Positions 3,577 through 32,000 of a stretch of DNA of 32,000 nt are shown piece by piece. The position numbers and the translations under genes were made by a program. Every line of letters starts with the position of its first letter. Position 1 is the stretch's first letter. The notes below the pieces were generated by a model. It saw only the letters and a program-made list of their open reading frames with translations. It made no database searches and was not told where the DNA came from. The DNA is from Candidatus Auribacterota bacterium (lineage in GTDB: Bacteria; Auribacterota; UBA6266). Location of the stretch: the NCBI GenBank assembly GCA_023136205.1, contig JAGLRQ010000040.1, positions 57-32,056 of the forward strand. Direction: 5' to 3'.

Positions 3577-3591
3577 GTACTTATTAAGTAC
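3577..3591. promoter_or_regulatory. Perfect palindrome GTACTTA-T-TAAGTAC overlapping the predicted transcription start (candidate operator)
   Basis: A 15-nt perfect inverted repeat immediately after the -10 hexamer. The GTAC...GTAC core recurs at 5853-5866 downstream of the glnN promoter. Confidence 0.35.
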
Positions 3592-3620
3592 AGAGATTGT
3601 GCTTGGAAGTTTTGCAATGG

Positions 3621-3645
3621 GGCGTTTGAGAGAGCGTCTTTTTTT
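3621..3645 (+). terminator. Intrinsic terminator-like hairpin T1 in the amtB upstream region
   Basis: GGCGUU / AGCGUC stem (two G-U pairs), loop UGAGAG, followed by U7 (3639-3645). Confidence 0.5.
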
Positions 3646-3761: not shown

Positions 3762-3800
3762 TTGAGCTCAGGTGCTCAATTTAATGCCGTTGAAGGCATT
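3762..3800 (+). promoter_or_regulatory. Two adjacent 6-bp hairpins with hexaloops (antiterminator-like) in the amtB leader
   Basis: UUGAGC-UCAGGU-GCUCAA (3762-3779) and AAUGCC-GUUGAA-GGCAUU (3783-3800). Both loops have G at position 4. The 3' arm of the second hairpin is shared with terminator T3. Confidence 0.4.
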
Positions 3801-3818
3801 ATCTTGAGTGCCTTTTTT
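3793..3818 (+). terminator. Intrinsic terminator T3 immediately upstream of amtB
   Basis: AAGGCAUU / GAGUGCCUU stem (8 pairs including one G-U), loop AUCUUG, then a U-run to 3818. Its 5' arm overlaps the preceding hexaloop hairpin. Confidence 0.55.
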
Positions 3819-3857
3819 ATTTAGATGAATAAAAAACAAAGTAAAAAGGAGGGAAGA

Positions 3858-5851: not shown

Positions 5852-5896
5852 GGTACAAAGTTGTACCGCCGGAAAAAAGATAACAAAGGCGTTCTT
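5852..5896 (+). promoter_or_regulatory. ANTAR-type dual hexaloop RNA element (P1 + P2) in the glnN leader
   Basis: P1 is GGUAC-AAAGUU-GUACC (5852-5867). P2 is GAUAAC-AAAGGC-GUUCUU (5879-5896, one U/C mismatch). Both hexaloops have A at position 1 and G at position 4, as in described ANTAR targets. The P2 3' half lies in the terminator 5' arm. Confidence 0.55.
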
Positions 5897-5927
5897 AAAC
5901 CTGCAGGGTTTTTGAGTGCCTTTTTTT
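5888..5927 (+). terminator. Intrinsic terminator in the glnN leader
   Basis: GGCGUUCUUAAACCU / GGGUUUUUGAGUGCC gives 13 of 15 pairs with loop GCA, followed by U7 (5921-5927). It lies 45 nt before the glnN start codon. Confidence 0.65.
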
Positions 5928-14118: not shown

Positions 14119-16734
14119 ATGGATGAGAACTTTAGTACAGGACTTCCGGATTTGGATAGTATTTTACGGGGGATATGTCCGGGTGATAATGTCGTTTTCC
14201 AGGTAGATACTGTAGGGGATTATATTCCATTTGTCCATCCTTTCTGCGAAAAGGCTCATATGCAGGGCCGGGATCTAATTTATTTTCGCTTTGCCGATCA
14301 CGAGTATCTTATTCCTAAGGGTGTTTCTGCTCATGTTTATGAAATTCATCCGGAGGCCGGCTTTGAAAAATTTATTGCCGAAATTTTTGATGTTATTGAA
14401 AAATTCGGTTATGGCGCCTGTTATGTTTTTGATTCTCTTTCCGAGCTTGCGGTTGACTGGTACAGTGACCGTATGCTGGGAAACTTCTTTATGCTTACGT
14501 GTCCTTATCTATATACCTTTGATACGGTCGCGTATTTCGGGCTTTTAAGGAATCATCATTCTTCATATGCCGTTGATGCCATACACAGCACCGCGCAGGT
14601 GGTTCTTGATATTTATCGTAGAAAAAGCGAATTTTATGTCTATCCTCTTAAAGTATATGAGCGGCATTCTAAAACAATGTATATGCCTCATAAGTGGGAT
14701 GGTGACAGGTTTATTCCGGAAGTAAGGAGCGCGGCAATCGCGGAGATACTCGGGTCAGTTTCCCACCCGTGGCTTGATTTTACGATAAACCGTTATGATA
14801 TCTGGGCCCGAAGCTTTACAGAAGCGCAGGAGATTGTTGACTCGGGCGCTAACGAAAAGCCGAAAGACTCGAGACAAAAAACCCTGTTTAGCCGCCTTAT
14901 CCGAATGGTGGTTTCAAGAGACCCGCGGGTTCTGTCTCTTATAGAGAAATATTTTAACCTGAAAGATGTGGTTAATATAGGAAAACGGATGATAGGTACA
15001 GGCCTGATCGGCGGCAAATCTCTCGGGATGCTGCTTGCGCGGTCTATAGTGAAGAATCAAGATAAAGATTTACATGACAAACTTGAATATCACGATTCGT
15101 TTTTTATCGGGTCGGATGTATTTTATACGTATATTATTGAAAACGGCTGCTGGTGGGCAAGGCGCGGAATAAAAAGAGAGGGTACATCCTTTAATGGGTT
15201 TATGGAAGTCAGACAACGTATGCTTTCCGGTAAGTTCCCGGACTACATTAAAAATCAATTTATTGAGATGCTCGATTATTTTGGGCAGTCTCCCATTATA
15301 GTCAGGTCTTCAAGCCTTCTTGAGGATGCGTATGGAAACGCTTTTTCCGGAAAGTACGAGAGTGTTTTTTGCGCGAATCAGGGAACACCCGAAGAACGTC
15401 TGGAGAAATTTATAGAAGCTGTTAGAATAGTCTATACGAGCACAATGAGCAAAGAGGCGATAGCTTACCGGGCGCGCTGGAACCTGCTGGATCGAGATGA
15501 ACAAATGGCTATTTTAGTACAGAGGGTTTCTGGCTCTATATATGGGGATCAGTATTTTCCTCAGGTTGCGGGTGTTGGGTTTTCATTTAATCCCTATGTA
15601 TGGAGCAATGAAATTAAACCGGAAGAAGGAATGATCCGTCTGGTTTTTGGTTTGGGGACCCGGGCTGTTGACAGAAGCGGCGATGATTATACACGGCTGG
15701 TGGCTTTAAATTCGCCGGACAGACGCCCGGAAGGAAGCCTTGCGGATGTTAGAAAATACTCTCAGCATCGTGTGGATGTTCTTGACTTACATGATAACCG
15801 TTATGTAACGAAAGATTTTGAGGAGGTAGTGCGGGGAGCTCCTGAATTTGACCCTAAGATGTTTGCTTCCCGCGATAAGGAAGTTGAAAGGAAAGCCAGA
15901 GAATACGGAACAAAAAATGTGTTCTCATGGGTTTTGACTTTTGACGAGCTTTTATCAGGCACAGGGTTTGTCGGGGATATGGGGAAAATGCTTAAGATTC
16001 TTCAAAAAGCTTATAATCATCCCGTGGATGTGGAATTCACGGCGAATTTTCTGGACGGTTGGCAGGATTATAATATAAACCTGCTTCAATGCAGGCCGTT
16101 TCAGATAAAAGGAAATCTGCGGAAAGTCAAGGCCCCGGTATCTATAAAGGACGAGCAGGTATTGCTGAAAACAAGAGGGCCGATTATCGGCAGCAGTATT
16201 TCTACGACAGTTGACAGAATTATTTATGTTGTTCCTGAAGTTTATAGTAAAATGAAGATAACAGACAGATATTCCGTTGCTCGTTTAATCGGACGAATTA
16301 CCCATCTCAAAGACAAGGGGAAAATACCCAAAATTATGCTTATCGGCCCGGGGAGGTGGGGAACCACCACGCCTTCTTTAGGTGTGCCCGTTTCATTTGC
16401 GGAGATAGATACCGTTTCTGTTATATGTGAAGTCGCGGCTATGGATGAAAACCTGATTCCGGATATATCTCTGGGAACGCATTTTTTTAATGACCTTGTT
16501 GAGGTAGATATGTTATATCTTGCTGTTTTTCCGGATAAAAAAGACAGCGCGATAAACAGATGTTTTTTTAATAACACTAAAAATAAGCTGGCTTCTTTGA
16601 TACCTGTTGAAAAATTATTTTCTCAGGCTGTAAAAGTAATAGATTCCGACAGTATTGAATCAGGCCGGCCGATGTGCCTGAACGCGGATGTCCTTGAACA
16701 AAAAGGAATCTGCTATCTAGATGTTAAAAAATAA
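14119..16734 (+). CDS. PEP/pyruvate-binding (PPDK_N ATP-grasp) domain protein with a degenerate KaiC/RecA-like N-terminal domain
   Basis: Starts 11 nt after gltD. The N-terminus GLPDLDSILRGICPGDNVVF...YVFDSLSEL resembles KaiC/RadA-like ATPases but lacks a GKT/S Walker A. The centre (IIVRSSSLLEDAYGNAFSGKYESVF, AILVQR, GVGFSFNP, VFGLGTRAVD) matches the nucleotide-binding domain of pyruvate-phosphate/water dikinases. No phospho-His swivel motif was seen. Confidence 0.7.
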   Translation: MDENFSTGLPDLDSILRGICPGDNVVFQVDTVGDYIPFVHPFCEKAHMQGRDLIYFRFADHEYLIPKGVSAHVYEIHPEAGFEKFIAEIFDVIEKFGYGACYVFDSLSELAVDWYSDRMLGNFFMLTCPYLYTFDTVAYFGLLRNHHSSYAVDAIHSTAQVVLDIYRRKSEFYVYPLKVYERHSKTMYMPHKWDGDRFIPEVRSAAIAEILGSVSHPWLDFTINRYDIWARSFTEAQEIVDSGANEKPKDSRQKTLFSRLIRMVVSRDPRVLSLIEKYFNLKDVVNIGKRMIGTGLIGGKSLGMLLARSIVKNQDKDLHDKLEYHDSFFIGSDVFYTYIIENGCWWARRGIKREGTSFNGFMEVRQRMLSGKFPDYIKNQFIEMLDYFGQSPIIVRSSSLLEDAYGNAFSGKYESVFCANQGTPEERLEKFIEAVRIVYTSTMSKEAIAYRARWNLLDRDEQMAILVQRVSGSIYGDQYFPQVAGVGFSFNPYVWSNEIKPEEGMIRLVFGLGTRAVDRSGDDYTRLVALNSPDRRPEGSLADVRKYSQHRVDVLDLHDNRYVTKDFEEVVRGAPEFDPKMFASRDKEVERKAREYGTKNVFSWVLTFDELLSGTGFVGDMGKMLKILQKAYNHPVDVEFTANFLDGWQDYNINLLQCRPFQIKGNLRKVKAPVSIKDEQVLLKTRGPIIGSSISTTVDRIIYVVPEVYSKMKITDRYSVARLIGRITHLKDKGKIPKIMLIGPGRWGTTTPSLGVPVSFAEIDTVSVICEVAAMDENLIPDISLGTHFFNDLVEVDMLYLAVFPDKKDSAINRCFFNNTKNKLASLIPVEKLFSQAVKVIDSDSIESGRPMCLNADVLEQKGICYLDVKK

Positions 16735-16752: not shown

Positions 16753-17460
16753 ATGAAAGAAAATGAGAAACAGCTTGAAGCCCTGTTTAAAATAAGCAAG
16801 GCGATTGCTTCAGATAATTATCTTGAAGACATTCTTAAACTTATAGTCGCGGTTACCGCCCAGGTGATGAACTCAAATATATGTACTTTAATGCTTATTG
16901 ACGAGCGAAAGAAAGAGCTTACAATACGGGCAACCCAGAGCGTAAGTGATGAATATAATAAAAAACCCCCAATTAAAATAGGCGAAGGGATTTCAGGCAA
17001 GGTCGCGAAAGAAAACAAGCCAATTTCAGTAAAAGATGTCGGTTTGGAAAAAGAATACAAATATCATGATATGGCTAAAAATGAGGGTTTAAAGTCTCTG
17101 CTTTGTGTGCCTCTTACGGTTAAGGGAAAGGTTATAGGCGTTATAAATTGTTATACTCCGGTCCCTCATGAATTTTCTTACGGCGAAATCAATATCCTCA
17201 AGACTATAGCCCATCAGGCCGCTGTCGCGATTGAAAACACCGAACTTATGGTAAAAACTAGGGTTATACAGGAAGAGCTTGAATCAAGAAAAAGAATCGA
17301 AAGAGCAAAGGGCATGTTGATGGAAGAAGAAAAATTGACAGAGCAGGAAGCCTATAACAAGATACAAAAGTTTGCCATGGATAACCGCAAAACCATGAAG
17401 GAAATAGCGGAAGCGATGATTCTGGCATATGATATGAGGCAGGGAAAAAAGAAAAAATAA
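16753..17460 (+). CDS. GAF-ANTAR RNA-binding transcription antiterminator
   Basis: Starts 18 nt after the upstream gene. GAF domain at about residues 10-165 (GEGISGKVA, LCVPL..GKVIGVINCY, AHQAAVAIEN). C-terminal ANTAR helices: LESRKRIERAKGMLMEEEKLTEQEAYNKIQKFAMDNRKTMKEIAEAMI. Confidence 0.85.
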   Translation: MKENEKQLEALFKISKAIASDNYLEDILKLIVAVTAQVMNSNICTLMLIDERKKELTIRATQSVSDEYNKKPPIKIGEGISGKVAKENKPISVKDVGLEKEYKYHDMAKNEGLKSLLCVPLTVKGKVIGVINCYTPVPHEFSYGEINILKTIAHQAAVAIENTELMVKTRVIQEELESRKRIERAKGMLMEEEKLTEQEAYNKIQKFAMDNRKTMKEIAEAMILAYDMRQGKKKK

Positions 17461-17520
17461 AATTGGACGCAGAGAACGCAGAGAAAAAACATAAAGTAGA
17501 TTTTAAAAACCTCATTTTTT

Positions 17521-17550
17521 AACCACAAATGAACACAAATCGACACAAAT
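17521..17550 (-). repeat. 30-nt tri-decamer repeat (ACACAAATNN x3), left island boundary copy
   Basis: The reverse complement ATTTGTGTCGATTTGTGTTCATTTGTGGTT matches 27397-27426 at 26 of 30 positions. The adjacent GACGCAGAGAACGCAGAGAA (17466-17485) is also internally repetitive. Confidence 0.6.
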
Positions 17551-17567
17551 TAAAAACAATAGAGAAA

Positions 17568-17595
17568 TAAGAAAAGGGAGTTGACCCCCTTTTCC
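17568..17595 (+). repeat. Hairpin-forming direct repeat, copy A (TAAGAAAAGGGAGTTGACCCCCTTTTCC)
   Basis: Identical to 19632-19658 apart from one extra C. GAAAAGGG pairs with CCCTTTTC as an 8-bp stem. Confidence 0.7.
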
Positions 17596-17623
17596 ACCCC
17601 CTTTTTCCAGACCCCCTTTTCCA
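17585..17623 (+). repeat. Tandem repeat CCCCCTTTTCCA x3 (middle unit expanded)
   Basis: Units lie at 17585-17596, 17597-17611 and 17612-17623, read directly from the sequence. Confidence 0.6.
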
Positions 17624-17865
17624 TCTGTATAGCTCCGTATTGATTCATTGATAGTGTAGTTGTTCAACAAACAGTTGTGAAAAAGCCAAATAAAAGATAA
17701 GATAAATTTTATACTAATAGTTGGTTTGCACAAAATACAAAACTTTGCTAACGTAAGACAGGAAGGTCTTTAGATGTAGGCTTATTCCAGAGCTTTATTA
17801 TGTATTTATTTTATTACTATCTTTAATGTACGTTATTTGGGGCGGCTCATTAAAAGGAGGTCTAT

Positions 17866-18144
17866 ATGGAAAAAAAACGGAAGTTCGATCTGAACGAAAT
17901 TAAAGCTCTCTTGCAGGAAAACGGATATACTATTGCTAGTGGCCTTAACCTAAGCTATAACACGGCGACTGAAAGTTGTGGTTCTTATTGCACCGGAGGC
18001 TGTAGAGGAGGCTGCTATACATGTAGTACTGGAACTTCTAAGAAAACAACGCAAGTAGTTCAACCTGCTATTCAAATTAGTAGAGAAAACATACTTGATA
18101 ATATCTTAACAATAACAAATGCACCAGCAGTTCGAAAGAAGTAG
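17866..18144 (+). CDS. Candidate RiPP precursor peptide with a central Cys ladder
   Basis: Strong SD AAGGAGG 6 nt before the ATG. 92 aa with five Cys, all in ESCGSYCTGGCRGGCYTCSTGTS (CX3CX3CX3CX2C), in a Gly/Ser/Thr-rich core. Charged helical N-terminal region. Lies 62 nt upstream of a radical SAM/SPASM gene. Confidence 0.6.
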   Translation: MEKKRKFDLNEIKALLQENGYTIASGLNLSYNTATESCGSYCTGGCRGGCYTCSTGTSKKTTQVVQPAIQISRENILDNILTITNAPAVRKK

Positions 18145-18206
18145 AGTTGCTTCTTACTGGTTAAAAGAGATCTGCCGCCCCGAAATTAAATATCAGGAGA
18201 ATTATA

Positions 18207-19634
18207 ATGAGATATCAACTGCACCACGATATCGGCATGAGATGTGATGTTGATAGAAATATCATTTATGTAAAAAATCCTGTTGAATCTGAATTGAGTG
18301 ATTTTCTGCAGACAATTAATTCTGAATTGGCTGTCTTCCTCGGACTGATGGATGGTTCTATGGAGATAGACGATGTCGTCCGGAACTGGAGCGAACTATT
18401 TTTCGGTACTAAACCTGACCGTGAGATTGGGAAGGTGCTTCAAGCTATGTTGAAGAGTAAACTCGGCCCGGATCTTCAGGTTCACCAAATATTGAACAAG
18501 GTGGATTCAAAGACATTAGGAAGAAGAGACCTCCCCGAAATAAGCACTCTTATTGTTCCCAAAGAAATCGAAAATATTGACGACCCGAGGCTCAGAATAC
18601 CTCTCCAGATGCTCTTTATGCCAACGTTGGATTGTACCCAGAAGTGTTCCTACTGCTATAGCACGGAATCATATTCGGATAATATAAAGGCCCTTGAATT
18701 CAAGAGAATACAGGAAATAATGGAAGAGGCGAAAAGGCTTGGTATGCACACAATAGATCTTTCCGGAGGAGAACCCGTTAGCTATAGACATTTCTTTCCT
18801 CTTCTGGAGAAGCTGTTTGAACTGGGGTTGGAGGTTAATTTGCCTACCAAATATCCACTCTCGAGAGAGGATGTAAAAAGGCTTAAAGCTATTGGCTTGA
18901 AAACGATACAAATAAGCATAGATGCCCTAACCCCAAAGGTTATAGATAAAGTTGTAGGCCTAAAAGGCTATGGACTAAAGATACTTAAGACACTCGATTA
19001 CTTAGAAGAAGCGGCGATAGGCGTAAGAACGAACACGGTCATAACATCATATACACTCGAAGAAGTAGAGCCCCTTATGCGCTTTTTAGCAACAAAAAAG
19101 AATATATACCGTGTAACTCAGTCACCCTATTCTATTTCCAGGTTTAAACACAAAAGCAAATTTCCAATCAGTAATGAAGAGTATAAAGTTATACTCGAGG
19201 CATCAGAAAAGATATTTGAATCGAGGCCCGATATAAGTTTTAATCCAGGAGATGTATTCGAACCCTACGAAAAAGTTTCCGTTATCGAACGGGAGAAGAG
19301 CTGGGACGAGAGGTCTTTTTGTAGTGGCGGCAGGCAAAATTTTGCTCTCCTGCCCGATGGCAAAGTTACCATGTGTGAAGAGCTGTACTATCAGCGTCAC
19401 TATATTATGGGTGACCTTACGGAGCAGTCGATCATGGAGATGTGGAATTCTCCAGAGGCAAAAAGCATATCCTATCCGCCGAAAGAACTATTTCCCGATG
19501 GGCCATGCAGAGATTGTAAAGACCTTGCTGCATGTCACTATTCTCCCGGAAGGTGCGTTAGAGAGGCTATTAAGCACTTCGGAGAAGATAAACATTATTA
19601 TCCAGATCCTAGGTGTCCTAAGGCTCCTGTTTAA
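18207..19634 (+). CDS. Radical SAM/SPASM peptide-modifying enzyme with an N-terminal RRE (PqqD-like) domain
   Basis: SD AGGAG upstream. CX3CX2C cluster CTQKCSYC plus SGGEP. The C-terminal SPASM-like cysteines are CSGG...DGKVTMC (GX4C) and CRDCKDLAACHYSPGRC, with a final C in RCPKAP. The first ~100 aa (IIYVKNP...INSELAVFLGLMDGSMEIDDVVRNW) look like a PqqD-type RiPP recognition element. Confidence 0.9.
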   Translation: MRYQLHHDIGMRCDVDRNIIYVKNPVESELSDFLQTINSELAVFLGLMDGSMEIDDVVRNWSELFFGTKPDREIGKVLQAMLKSKLGPDLQVHQILNKVDSKTLGRRDLPEISTLIVPKEIENIDDPRLRIPLQMLFMPTLDCTQKCSYCYSTESYSDNIKALEFKRIQEIMEEAKRLGMHTIDLSGGEPVSYRHFFPLLEKLFELGLEVNLPTKYPLSREDVKRLKAIGLKTIQISIDALTPKVIDKVVGLKGYGLKILKTLDYLEEAAIGVRTNTVITSYTLEEVEPLMRFLATKKNIYRVTQSPYSISRFKHKSKFPISNEEYKVILEASEKIFESRPDISFNPGDVFEPYEKVSVIEREKSWDERSFCSGGRQNFALLPDGKVTMCEELYYQRHYIMGDLTEQSIMEMWNSPEAKSISYPPKELFPDGPCRDCKDLAACHYSPGRCVREAIKHFGEDKHYYPDPRCPKAPV

Positions 19635-29796: not shown

Positions 29797-31449
29797 CTAA
29801 ACGGAATATTTAGCAGCTATCGGCATCCGTCTGCCGGTTCCAAATGCTTTTGAGGTAACTTTAAGCCCGGGAGCTGATTGCCTGCGCTTGTATTCACTCT
29901 TGTTTATCGCGTTAACCACCCATTTTACCGTTTTGAGCGGTATCCTCTTTGAAGAAATTTCTTTTATTGAGAGATGACGGTCTATGTAGAGTTCGATTAT
30001 TTTGTCCAGGATCTCATAAGGAGGAAGTGTGTCCTGATCCTTTTGGTTTGGCCGCAGTTCTGCCGAAGGAACTTTCGTGATTGTCTTTTCAGGGATTATT
30101 ATTTTATCTTTGTTTATATAATCTGCCAGCTTATACACAAGGGTTTTTGGGACATCCGAAAGAACGCTTAAACCACCGCTCATGTCGCCGTAAAGCGTGC
30201 AATAGCCAACGGCAGCCTCGCTTTTATTTCCCGTTGATAAAACCATATAGCCGAATTTGTTCGAAAGTGCCATTAAGATGTTCCCGCGTATTCTTGCCTG
30301 TATATTTTCCTCCGCGATATTGGATTTTCTGCCGGCAAATTGTTTTTTTAGTGATCTCAGATAAGTTGAAAAGAGGTTTTTTATAGGAATTGTCTCAAAT
30401 TTTATTCCAAGAGTTTTAGATAGCTTTTTTGAATCTTCGATGCTTCCCATAGAAGAATACCGGGAAGGCATTGTTATTCCAATAACATTTTCTTTTCCCA
30501 GGGCATCCTTCGCGATGCAGCAGGTTACTGCTGAGTCAATTCCCCCCGACAGCCCGAGTATTACCTTTTTAAATCCGCATTTATGAGTATAGTCTTTTAA
30601 TCCGAGAACGAGCGCGTTATACAGGGATTCAATTTTTTTCTGCGGCGTATAATTTATTGATTCATTCGAAGCTGTATCAACCGTTTTAATCTTTTCTTCA
30701 AAAGAGGGGAGTATGGTGTTAAGATTTCCTCTTTTATCAAAAAACATGCTTCTTCCGTCAAATACAAGTTCATCGTTTCCGCCTATCTGATTGACGAAAA
30801 CAACAGGAATCTTGTACTTTTTAGCATGGTTTGTAAACAGTTTGCGGCGCAGGCTTTCTTTGCCGATATGAAATGGGGATGCCGATATATTGATTAATAA
30901 ATCGATACCCTTAGCGGCAAGGAGTTTAACAGGGTCAATGTGGTATCTTTCTTTTAACAGCGGGGTATGAATATTCCACGCGTCTTCACATATGGTAATT
31001 CCGATTTTGTTTCCTTTGAATTTTACAGGTTTTATTTCTTTGCCGTGCTGGAAATATCTGGTTTCGTCAAAAACATCGTAAGAGGGGAGCAGCGTTTTAT
31101 AAGTTTTTGAAATGATTTTTCCCTTATAAAACAGAATGGCAGCATTGTGAAGCTTTTTTCCTTTTTTATTATTCGCGGGCAATACGGTTCCTATAAGAAT
31201 TCCCATGCCGGGATTTTTCCTTGAGATTTGTATTAGTTTTTTCTCGGCCTGGTTAACTTGTTCCAGGAACCATTTGCTATCAAGGAGGTCCCGTGGAGGA
31301 TAACCTGTCAGATAAAGTTCAGGGAACACAATAAGGTCGGGATTTTTAGTTTTACTTATTGTGATTGCCTGTCTGGCTTTTTTTATATTGCCCTTGATAT
31401 CTCCAACTGTAGGATTAAGCTGTGCAATGGTAATTCTCATAATGAGCAT
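29797..31449 (-). CDS. nadE: Glutamine-dependent NAD+ synthetase (CN-hydrolase + NAD synthase domains)
   Basis: N-terminal nitrilase-type domain (RITIAQLNP, FPELYLTGY, ICEDAW) and a PP-loop GLSGGIDSAV. The start may be the internal Met at 31440. Confidence 0.9.
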   Translation of the reverse strand: MLIMRITIAQLNPTVGDIKGNIKKARQAITISKTKNPDLIVFPELYLTGYPPRDLLDSKWFLEQVNQAEKKLIQISRKNPGMGILIGTVLPANNKKGKKLHNAAILFYKGKIISKTYKTLLPSYDVFDETRYFQHGKEIKPVKFKGNKIGITICEDAWNIHTPLLKERYHIDPVKLLAAKGIDLLINISASPFHIGKESLRRKLFTNHAKKYKIPVVFVNQIGGNDELVFDGRSMFFDKRGNLNTILPSFEEKIKTVDTASNESINYTPQKKIESLYNALVLGLKDYTHKCGFKKVILGLSGGIDSAVTCCIAKDALGKENVIGITMPSRYSSMGSIEDSKKLSKTLGIKFETIPIKNLFSTYLRSLKKQFAGRKSNIAEENIQARIRGNILMALSNKFGYMVLSTGNKSEAAVGYCTLYGDMSGGLSVLSDVPKTLVYKLADYINKDKIIIPEKTITKVPSAELRPNQKDQDTLPPYEILDKIIELYIDRHLSIKEISSKRIPLKTVKWVVNAINKSEYKRRQSAPGLKVTSKAFGTGRRMPIAAKYSV

Positions 31450-31502
31450 TTTAAAAAGCGGCTGTGGTTAAGTCAAGCGATAAGATTGCCTTTTAAAAAA
31501 TC

Positions 31503-31532
31503 TTGACAAAAGTTCTTATTTTTTTGTAACGT
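31503..31532 (+). promoter_or_regulatory. Candidate promoter of gdhA
   Basis: TTGACA at 31503-31508, with TG-T-AACGT / TAACGT 17-18 nt downstream. The -10 is non-canonical, so the assignment is tentative. Confidence 0.35.
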
Positions 31533-31544
31533 AATATCCCTAAT

Positions 31545-31593
31545 CGCACAATGGTGTGCGGAAATATTTTTTTTATTGAGACAAAGGTGTCCC
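31545..31593 (+). promoter_or_regulatory. ANTAR-type dual hexaloop RNA element (P1 + P2) in the gdhA leader
   Basis: P1 is CGCAC-AAUGGU-GUGCG (31545-31560). P2 is GAGAC-AAAGGU-GUCCC (31578-31593, one A/C mismatch). Both loops have A1 and G4. P2 lies entirely within the terminator 5' arm. Confidence 0.6.
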
Positions 31594-31621
31594 GGGCCGT
31601 AGGGATATCTTTGTCTTTTTT
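31579..31621 (+). terminator. Intrinsic terminator in the gdhA leader
   Basis: 15-bp stem AGACAAAGGUGUCCC / GGGAUAUCUUUGUCU (three G-U pairs), 8-nt loop, then a U-run at 31617-31621. It lies 66 nt before the gdhA start. Confidence 0.7.
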
Positions 31622-31686
31622 ATTGGAAACTTATCCCATACTTAGCGGCGGGAAGCAGGTAAAAACTCAAAGAGGAGGAAGAGAAA

Positions 31687-32000
31687 TTGAGTTATATCAA
31701 AGATGTTTTAAACCTCGTAAAGAGTCGAAATCCCAGCGAGTTGGAATTTTACCAGGCGGTAGAAGAAGTACTGGAATCACTTGAACCGGTGCTGGAACAA
31801 CATCCGGAATACCAAAAAGCGAGCATACTCGAGCGTATTGTGGAACCTGAGAGGGTTGTAATGTTCCGTGTTCCATGGATGGGAGATAAAGGCCGGTATC
31901 ATGTAAACAGAGGTTTCAGGATTGAAATGAACAGCGCTATTGGGCCGTACAAAGGCGGTTTAAGGTTTCATCCGACCGTTAATCTGGGTATTTTAAAATT
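31687..32000 (+). CDS. gdhA: Glutamate dehydrogenase (NADP-type GdhA), 5' part, continues beyond the window
   Basis: TTG start 8 nt after AGGAGG (31673-31678). The translation ...NPSELEFYQAVEEVLESLEPVLEQHPEY...ILERIVEPERVVMFRVPWMGDKGRYHVNRGFRIEMNSAIGPYKGGLRFHP is the canonical GdhA N-terminus. Confidence 0.85.
   Translation, partial: MSYIKDVLNLVKSRNPSELEFYQAVEEVLESLEPVLEQHPEYQKASILERIVEPERVVMFRVPWMGDKGRYHVNRGFRIEMNSAIGPYKGGLRFHPTVNLGILK

Follow-up and report, generated by a model that had tools for sequence, protein, structure and literature searches.

The question raised by this locus is what is done by the leader of gdhA, a glutamate dehydrogenase gene that stands directly behind a strong transcription terminator. 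The locus lies in a stretch of 32,000 nucleotides (nt) from a Candidatus Auribacterota bacterium (assembly GCA_023136205.1, contig JAGLRQ010000040.1, positions 57 to 32,056 of the forward strand), which we call the window. The leader element spans 31544-31624, lies 65 nt upstream of the gdhA Shine-Dalgarno (SD) sequence and TTG start codon, and consists of two small hairpins, P1 and P2, the second of which is overlapped by the terminator. From sequence comparison, we consider it probable that this leader attenuates transcription in the protein-dependent manner of the ANTAR class and that it is read by the GAF-ANTAR protein encoded in the same window. A preliminary description of the locus had set out the mechanism of ANTAR control without naming ANTAR. 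The mechanism itself is already known, and what is new is gdhA as a target, the GAF sensor architecture and the phylum.

According to Ramesh et al. (2012), an ANTAR target consists of two hairpins of at least 3 bp, each with a hexaloop that carries A at the first and G at the fourth position (A1 and G4), with a variable linker between them, and the second hairpin competes with an overlapping terminator. For EutV, the two closing pairs, 5′-AC...GU-3′, are sequence-specific (Ramesh et al., 2012). The gdhA leader has two stems of at least 3 bp, two A1/G4 hexaloops and a P2 that cannot coexist with the terminator, and an ANTAR protein is encoded in the window (Table 1). The preliminary description had given P1 as CGCAC-AAUGGU-GUGCG and P2 as GAGAC-AAAGGU-GUCCC, and both sequences are as written. 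P1 is a stable hairpin of five pairs and a U·G wobble (−8.4 kcal/mol alone; z = −4.0 against shuffles). The five-pair stem assigned to P2 did not stand: from the loop outward, the pairs C-G, A-U and G-C are followed by an A·C mismatch and then by an outer G-C, and because of this internal mismatch the effective helix is 3 bp (GAC/GUC). The A1 and G4 positions of both loops and the AC...GU closing context, which had been likened to that of the glnN leader, can be read from the sequence. Equally sound was the placement of P2 wholly within the 5′ arm of a 15-bp terminator that is followed by a U-run and lies upstream of the SD sequence and the TTG codon. In this terminator, AGACAAAGGUGUCCC (31579-31593) pairs with GGGAUAUCUUUGUCU (31602-31616) to form 15 pairs, including two G·U pairs, or 16 when G31578·U31617 is counted; the 8-nt loop is GGGCCGUA, and the tail has U at 31616-31621, then A, then UU. 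A terminator scan also called this hairpin with 16 pairs and a T-tail, and none of 200 shuffles was as stable (−25.1 kcal/mol, z = −6.8). Because P1 is at −8.4, P2 at −2.4 and the terminator at −25.1 kcal/mol, the default state should be termination, and P2 should require a stabiliser from outside. As a separate observation, a run of eight U starts 6 nt after P1 (31544-31575), and the terminator scan reported a weak terminator-like site there; this run might cause a pause during which the regulator could load, and the related locus L168, introduced below, has four U only at this position.

The core octamer of the loops, CAAWGKNG, was found 17 times in the window against an expectation of 15.9; because it is not enriched, the loop motif alone is uninformative. 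We searched with a descriptor derived from the literature that requires two A..G.. hexaloops, each closed by a stem of 3 bp or more and joined by 2-35 nt of linker, and P2 inside a terminator of −8 kcal/mol or below with a run of at least five T. It matched at three separate places in the window, namely in the leaders of amtB, glnN and gdhA, all on the coding strand and directly upstream of nitrogen-assimilation genes, whereas 200 dinucleotide shuffles gave a mean of 0.225 sites, with only one of the 200 reaching three. The many matches in coding regions that the preliminary description had named as telling against its proposal were not seen: the descriptor matched nothing inside the coding regions of the window, and in about 912 kb of related loci outside it, searched on both strands, seven of the eight matches belong to nitrogen-gene leaders, the eighth being evidently spurious (11 matches in all, three of them in the window). 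Rfam gave no match for the whole window at gathering thresholds and, for the region 31450-31700 at E-values up to 10, only spurious sub-threshold matches to small nucleolar RNAs and small RNAs; no ANTAR-target family matched in either scan.

The loops of the glnN leader with their AC...GU closing are ACAAAGUUGU and ACAAAGGCGU, and the amtB-glnK leader has the P2 hairpin UGC-AAUGGG-GCG, an overlapping terminator of −8.4 kcal/mol and a U-run. Because the loop and closing-pair sequences are shared, one protein plausibly serves the three leaders. Their terminators are of unequal strength (amtB −8.4, glnN −17 and gdhA −25 kcal/mol), and therefore basal read-through may differ among them.

The only ANTAR gene in the window encodes the GAF-ANTAR regulator and lies 14.1 kb from the gdhA leader, not 25 kb as first stated, the latter figure being close to the distance between the gdhA and glnN leaders (25.7 kb). 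Its Pfam scores are 75.6 bits for GAF and 67.8 bits for ANTAR (PF03861; cut-off 27.3). The ANTAR domain matches those of Rv1626 (1.6e-10), EutV (1.3e-7), NasR and AmiR. In an ungapped alignment to EutV, the equivalents of the RNA-contact residues K143, Y164, M172 and R175 are kept, and at the positions of R168, N173 and R177 the window protein has Q, D and T, which Rv1626 has as well. The closest solved relatives of the GAF domain are 3trc and 3ci6 (E about 1e-14) and 4g3k (7e-13), and its top NCBIfam matches are PtsP and NifA. The GAF domains of PtsP (EI-Ntr) and NifA sense nitrogen status via glutamine and/or 2-oxoglutarate. Because these nitrogen sensors are the nearest relatives, we propose 2-oxoglutarate or glutamine as the signal; the GAF domain of the regulator probably senses one of these nitrogen-status metabolites.

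Further support comes from other genomes. Locus L168, from a second Auribacterota metagenome-assembled genome (MAG), was reached through the regulator search and not through the gdhA scan described below; it keeps the nadE/gdhA synteny and encodes a regulator that is 76% identical. Its nadE/gdhA spacer contains P1 UCAC-AAAGAC-GUGA and, after a linker of 21 nt, P2 GAC-AAAGAU-GUC inside a terminator of −15 kcal/mol. Compared with the window, P1 shows a double change from G-C to U-A, and the terminator shows one-sided changes. When about 155 gdhA loci (GTDB genomes and Joint Genome Institute metagenomes) were scanned upstream, the element was found in four further gdhA leaders, all of different sequence, namely L024 (a Desulfobacterales MAG), L107, L115 (where it precedes gdhA-nfnA-nfnB) and L111. 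The element is tied to gdhA in six lineages (the window, L168, L024, L107, L115 and L111). The GTDB part was based on the gdhA N-terminus; gdhA being promiscuous, the 80 loci obtained belong to many unrelated phyla, and only L024 among them has the leader. The closest gdhA relative (L088, 80% identity) has a degenerate look-alike 257 nt upstream, which we did not count as a leader.

Whole-leader MAFFT alignments split the P1 stem, and base pairs were counted from equal-length P1/P2 segments of nine leaders. In these, 85.9% of the cells are paired and 8 of the 11 pairs have changes on both sides, with a covariation score of 0.604 against 0.23 for shuffles (none of 500 reached 0.604) and 0.07-0.15 for slid controls. 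Five of the six P1 pairs are changed on both sides, and the outer P1 pairs, which the selection descriptor did not demand, covary. For P2, AC/GU is invariant, the third pair is G-C, A-U or G-U, and the fourth and fifth pairs are not conserved. A1 and G4 are invariant in all nine leaders.

Attenuators with G1 instead of A1 also occur: AC-GAAGGC-GU and AC-GAAGAC-GU (L173:~655-700; L071:~465-520) keep AC...GU and the overlapping terminator. The G1 unit of L071 precedes nfnA-nfnB-gdhA and has no obvious P1. In two lineages, gdhA forms a transcription unit with NfnAB-like genes for a DHODB-type FAD/NAD subunit and a GltD-like subunit (L115:3895-6124; L071:565-2835), which would supply NADPH to an assimilatory glutamate dehydrogenase (GDH).

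The neighborhoods of the regulator family point in the same direction. All ten GAF-ANTAR loci inspected are ammonium-assimilation or glutamine-amidotransferase clusters, and their genes include amtB, glnK, glnA or glnN, gltBD or a split glutamate synthase (GOGAT), carAB, purLQS, pyrG, nadE, asnB, guaA and hisHF. In five loci (L071, L171, L173, L174 and L175), the regulator gene has one or two attenuators of its own in front of it, and the window regulator rides on the glnN leader; positive autoregulation therefore appears to be a recurring feature. A tblastn search with the regulator detected GAF-ANTAR genes in just two of the scanned gdhA loci, both of which have attenuators. In L024, the gdhA leader has the gene (50% identity) as its immediate upstream neighbor, and in L071 (a Planctomycetales MAG) gdhA is directly followed by a 71%-identical gene, which itself stands behind two tandem attenuators. 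In L168 and the window, a GAF-ANTAR gene lies within 10-14 kb of the gdhA leader. The proposal of a shared trans-acting RNA-binding regulator, originally made from two nitrogen leaders, is supported by the ANTAR-target features of the leader and by the GAF-ANTAR gene in the window, to which the third leader (amtB), the L168 ortholog, the four other gdhA leaders and the GAF-ANTAR genes beside gdhA elsewhere can now be added.

Among the 120 best homologs listed, all are at least 71% identical to the regulator and none is functionally named; those with a named source come from Aureabacteria, Omnitrophota (Omnitrophica) and one Actinobacteria. An exhaustive search of representatives with the regulator was swamped by giant multi-GAF proteins and is uninformative on the size of the GAF-ANTAR family. 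In five of the loci, a protein of 520-550 amino acids (aa) with only a Glu_synthase (FMN) domain is encoded immediately after the GAF-ANTAR gene (Table 1), and small HTH_8 (Fis-like) genes recur in the L171, L173, L174, L175 and L176 clusters.

We infer the binding, the ligand and the direction of the response as follows. Transcription would start near 31538 and yield P1; the P2-forming sequence would double as the 5′ arm of the terminator, which by default would stop RNA polymerase at the U-run before gdhA. In its RNA-binding state, the ANTAR dimer would engage the P1 hexaloop and then the P2 hexaloop, recognising A1, the flipped-out G4 and the AC/GU closing pairs, and the held P2 would block nucleation of the terminator and allow read-through into gdhA. 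The same protein would antiterminate the amtB-glnK and glnN-gltBD leaders, and because the glnN-gltBD operon carries the regulator gene, positive autoregulation would result. Under high nitrogen demand, all ammonium-assimilation routes would rise together.

This scheme has clear precedents. The EutV system and its eutP, eutG, eutS and eutA leaders in Enterococcus faecalis have the same A1/G4 dual hexaloops, AC...GU closing and P2 in the 5′ arm of the terminator, and they show the default termination and the read-through on protein binding that we propose here. The crystal structure of EutV with RNA, in which the flipped-out G4 is the sole base-specific contact, supports successive binding of P1 and then P2. 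However, EutV has a phosphorylated receiver input and ethanolamine-utilisation targets, in contrast to the one-component GAF input and the ammonium-assimilation genes considered here, and some of the sibling P1 loops here have 7 nt, unlike the eut leaders. NasR/nasF of Klebsiella oxytoca and AmiR/amiE of Pseudomonas aeruginosa are one-component (NasR) or ligand-controlled ANTAR antiterminators of nitrogen-related operons with dual-hexaloop leaders, and their ANTAR domains are homologous to that of the window regulator; they differ in using a NIT (nitrate) sensor or an AmiC partner instead of GAF, and in controlling the use of nitrate or amides instead of GDH, glutamine synthetase (GS) and GOGAT. 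In GnfK/GnfR of Geobacter sulfurreducens and the Desulfotomaculum and Pelobacter regulons predicted by Ramesh et al. (2012), ANTAR antitermination acts on the leaders of amtB, glnK, GS and glutamate synthase as a nitrogen regulon of several operons, with a similar conserved core, GCAANGGCGC. Antitermination of nif, glnK and amtB by GnfR has been demonstrated in Geobacter, but GnfR is a two-component response regulator, and Geobacter gdhA is not an ANTAR target but is repressed at initiation by GnfM. Finally, PtsP (EI-Ntr), NifA and the NifA-like Nlh1/Nlh2 are the closest solved and curated GAF relatives, but they act through a phosphotransferase or sigma-54 activator output and not through RNA binding.

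ANTAR control of nitrogen regulons is not in itself new, since it was predicted for P-II proteins, ammonium transporters and glutamine and glutamate synthases (Ramesh et al., 2012). In the portion of the target tables of that study that we consulted, GS appears 25 times and glutamate dehydrogenase is absent, and no paper linking ANTAR to gdhA was found in the literature searched. According to the same authors, no GAF-ANTAR protein had been characterised at that time, and in a 2025 review none of the tabulated characterised ANTAR antiterminators (AmiR, NasR, EutV and Rv1626) has a GAF input.

Several observations weigh against the reading of the gdhA leader as an ANTAR attenuator controlled by the window protein. 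The first group concerns the RNA. The P2 helix is only 3 bp long, and its stability on its own is no better than that of shuffled sequences. The linker of 16-18 nt exceeds the 5-12 nt of the Enterococcus faecalis eut leaders, in which linkers of 3 or 14 nt impaired induction by EutV; in the related leaders the linker measures 3-17 nt, and GAF-ANTAR proteins may differ in what they tolerate. Because the descriptor by which leaders were selected demanded 3 bp in each stem, only the outer P1 pairs provide unbiased covariation. The promoter of the gdhA leader is putative, being a poor match that the consensus scan did not accept. The second group concerns the regulation. No leader could be detected at the regulator locus L170. 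If gdhA were co-induced with GS-GOGAT and amtB, this would be opposite to the enteric and Geobacter pattern, in which gdhA is repressed under nitrogen limitation. In addition, other ANTAR paralogs may exist because about 42 kb of the genome is covered (the window and about 9.4 kb beyond gdhA, L087).

This last point leads to the alternative that survives best, according to which the gdhA leader is an ANTAR attenuator whose partner is another paralog elsewhere in the genome, possibly responding to the opposite signal so that gdhA would be reciprocal to GS-GOGAT and amtB. It accords with the reciprocal gdhA control known from Geobacter and with the limited genome coverage. Moreover, L071 carries two GAF-ANTAR genes within 6 kb, and these paralogs flank the nfnAB-gdhA unit with 55% and 71% identity to the window protein, while the GAF-ANTAR protein beside gdhA in L024 is only 50% identical. 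However, the gdhA loops and closing pairs (AC-AAUGGU-GU and AC-AAAGGU-GU) are indistinguishable from those of the glnN and amtB leaders, neither the window nor the 9.4 kb past gdhA contains a second ANTAR gene, and in L168 the 12.5-kb stretch with gdhA holds no ANTAR gene other than the 76%-identical ortholog. We therefore consider a different partner unlikely and the regulator of the window, rather than a paralog, the most likely reader of the gdhA leader.

According to a second alternative, the terminated leader of about 80 nt is a functional small RNA whose two ANTAR sites titrate the regulator in the manner of EutX/Rli55, instead of or beside acting as a switch in cis. A single hexaloop suffices for ANTAR binding, and EutX works in this way; the leader has its own promoter-like site, and its terminator is the strongest of the three leaders, so that short transcripts should accumulate. 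Against this, the promoter scan found no promoter-like site between the terminator and gdhA, and gdhA expression must therefore pass the terminator; the element is also positionally tied to gdhA in all six lineages. A titrating function is thus quite improbable.

Slightly harder still to sustain is the view that we are dealing with a partial terminator that acts constitutively, or with a chance pair of hairpins beside an ordinary terminator, with no protein-dependent switching. The instability of P2 alone is in its favor, as is the shortness of the A..G.. hexaloop motif with its unenriched core octamer. The full architecture, however, occurs three times against 0.225 expected, and only before nitrogen genes, and it recurs in six gdhA leaders of different sequence in which P1 covaries and AC/GU is invariant. 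Furthermore, the hairpin has no upstream gene to terminate. We had considered it as the 3′ end of an upstream gene and ruled this out: nadE, on the minus strand upstream of gdhA, is divergent, so the hairpin cannot end another plus-strand gene, and the plus-strand open reading frame (ORF) at 31258-31506 is antisense inside nadE. We regard a role without switching as very improbable.

A metabolite riboswitch or a cis-regulatory RNA of another known type (T-box, glutamine riboswitch, PyrR or TRAP site) would also provide a structured 5′ leader with a terminator before a gene of amino-acid metabolism, but with no Rfam match at gathering thresholds, evidently spurious matches below them, and a conserved part that consists of two tiny hairpins without a pocket-forming junction, this explanation can practically be dismissed.

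With the ANTAR attenuator read by the window protein as the preferred reading, a broader idea may be considered, namely that GAF-ANTAR, a small and unusually conserved protein, serves several largely uncultivated lineages as their master nitrogen regulator, acting purely by antitermination as a one-component sensor of 2-oxoglutarate or glutamine. We offer this idea only tentatively, as a possibility with somewhat less than an even chance. Identity to the window regulator is 71% or more in MAGs labelled Auribacterota, Omnitrophota or Planctomycetota and, in a Desulfobacterales MAG, about 50%. If the idea is true, such a regulator would replace NtrC, GlnR, TnrA and NtcA, and its control would cover amtB-glnK, GS, GOGAT, NADP-GDH with the NfnAB supply of NADPH, and possibly the adjacent glutamine-amidotransferase genes; it would also autoregulate positively, and GDH would be co-induced with GS-GOGAT instead of being reciprocal to it. 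For the gdhA leader itself, our reading would bring glutamate dehydrogenase, a central enzyme, within the reach of an RNA switch that is well understood, and would give the GAF-ANTAR architecture a concrete and testable regulon of three leaders and one regulator within 32 kb. Auribacterota is an uncultivated phylum of the Planctomycetota-Verrucomicrobiota-Chlamydiota group, and the leader is among the few ways to read its nitrogen sensing. A protein-RNA pair of this compactness could be rebuilt in vitro to identify the GAF ligand.

Table 1. Positions of the gdhA leader, its sibling leaders, the regulator gene and associated features; positions refer to the window unless a locus is named.
Feature	Position	Strand	Description
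amtB-glnK sibling leader	3584-3645	+	P1 UUAAGUAC-AGAGAUU-GUGCUUGG, 7-nt loop, A1 and G4
glnN sibling leader	5852-5927	+	P1 GGUAC-AAAGUU-GUACC, P2 AAC-AAAGGC-GUU, overlapping terminator (−17 kcal/mol), U-run
GAF-ANTAR one-component regulator	16753-17460	+	235 aa; last gene of apparent glnN-gltB-gltD-PPDK_N-like operon
Putative sigma-70-type promoter of gdhA leader	31503-31537	+	−35 TTGACA 31503-31508; −10 uncertain
P1 hairpin	31544-31561	+	U·G then CGCAC/GUGCG stem; hexaloop AAUGGU (31550-31555; A1, G4), AC...GU closing
P1-P2 linker	31562-31577	+	A/U-rich AAAUAUUUUUUUUAUU; 16-18 nt, set by choice of P2 start
P2 hairpin	31578-31593	+	GAGAC-AAAGGU-GUCCC; core GAC/GUC 31580-31591; hexaloop AAAGGU 31583-31588 (A1, G4)
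Intrinsic terminator	31578-31624	+	5′ arm 31578-31593 = whole P2; loop 31594-31601; 3′ arm 31602-31617; U-run
SD and start of gdhA	31671-31689	+	SD AGAGGAGG; GGAGG 31674-31678; TTG 31687-31689
gdhA, 5′ part	31687-32000	+	NADP-specific glutamate dehydrogenase; full gene 445 aa on source contig
Glu_synthase-only protein	L171:10936-12528, L173:1516-3168, L174:10788-12353, L175:10729-12294, L176:11143-12735		

The frame of gdhA is confirmed by translation and reads as a GdhA N-terminus; the L168 ortholog begins with ATG at the homologous residue (MSYIKDVL). GdhA matches NCBIfam NF006929 with 773 bits (cut-off 536), and on the source contig the gene is monocistronic, having a convergent neighbor and its own 3′ terminator. 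For the −10 element of its leader, the options are TAACGT (31527-31532, 18-nt spacer) and TAATAT (31532-31537, 23-nt spacer), and at the equivalent position the siblings have clear promoters, TTGACA-17-TATAAA for amtB and TTGACA-17-TAAAAA for glnN. On the minus strand, within 31440-31476, the promoter-like sequence TTGACT-17-TAAAAT ends at 31448 and is followed about 7 nt downstream by the likely true nadE start, an ATG at 31440 (MRITIAQLNPTVGD). The nadE gene may be transcribed as a leaderless mRNA, and the listed start of its ORF at 31449 is probably too early.

The gene order of the window according to Pfam is amtB and glnK; glnN, gltB, gltD, the PPDK_N-like gene and the GAF-ANTAR gene; unrelated genes; and nadE (minus strand) and gdhA. 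The glnN gene encodes a type III GS, and because the gaps from glnN to the GAF-ANTAR gene are just 11-77 nt, these genes look like one operon. Directly before the start codon of amtB, its 5′ untranslated region (UTR) contains a second terminator-like nested hairpin (3770-3824), GGUGCUCAAUUUAAUGCCGUUGAAGGCAUUAUCUUGAGUGCC followed by six U, which may be a second and different attenuator. An exact 13-mer, CAATTTAATGCCG, is common to the amtB 5′ UTR of the window and that of an unrelated MAG with the same layout (L176:590-660).

Between gltD and the regulator gene lies the gene of the 871-aa PPDK_N-like protein (phosphoenolpyruvate-utilising, ATP-grasp; 14119-16734), which recurs beside nadE and gdhA in L168 (7637-10273). 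In L004, a frame directly upstream of gdhA (upstream of 3001) resembles, in a reading by eye only, the C-terminal part of a PPDK_N-like relative. Downstream of the regulator gene (17500-17630), there are short direct repeats, three copies of ACACAAAT and three GACCCCCTTTTCC-like copies, followed by a Cys-rich ORF of 92 aa and a radical-SAM/SPASM gene (17866-19634), which together look like a precursor and maturase pair for a ribosomally synthesized and post-translationally modified peptide.

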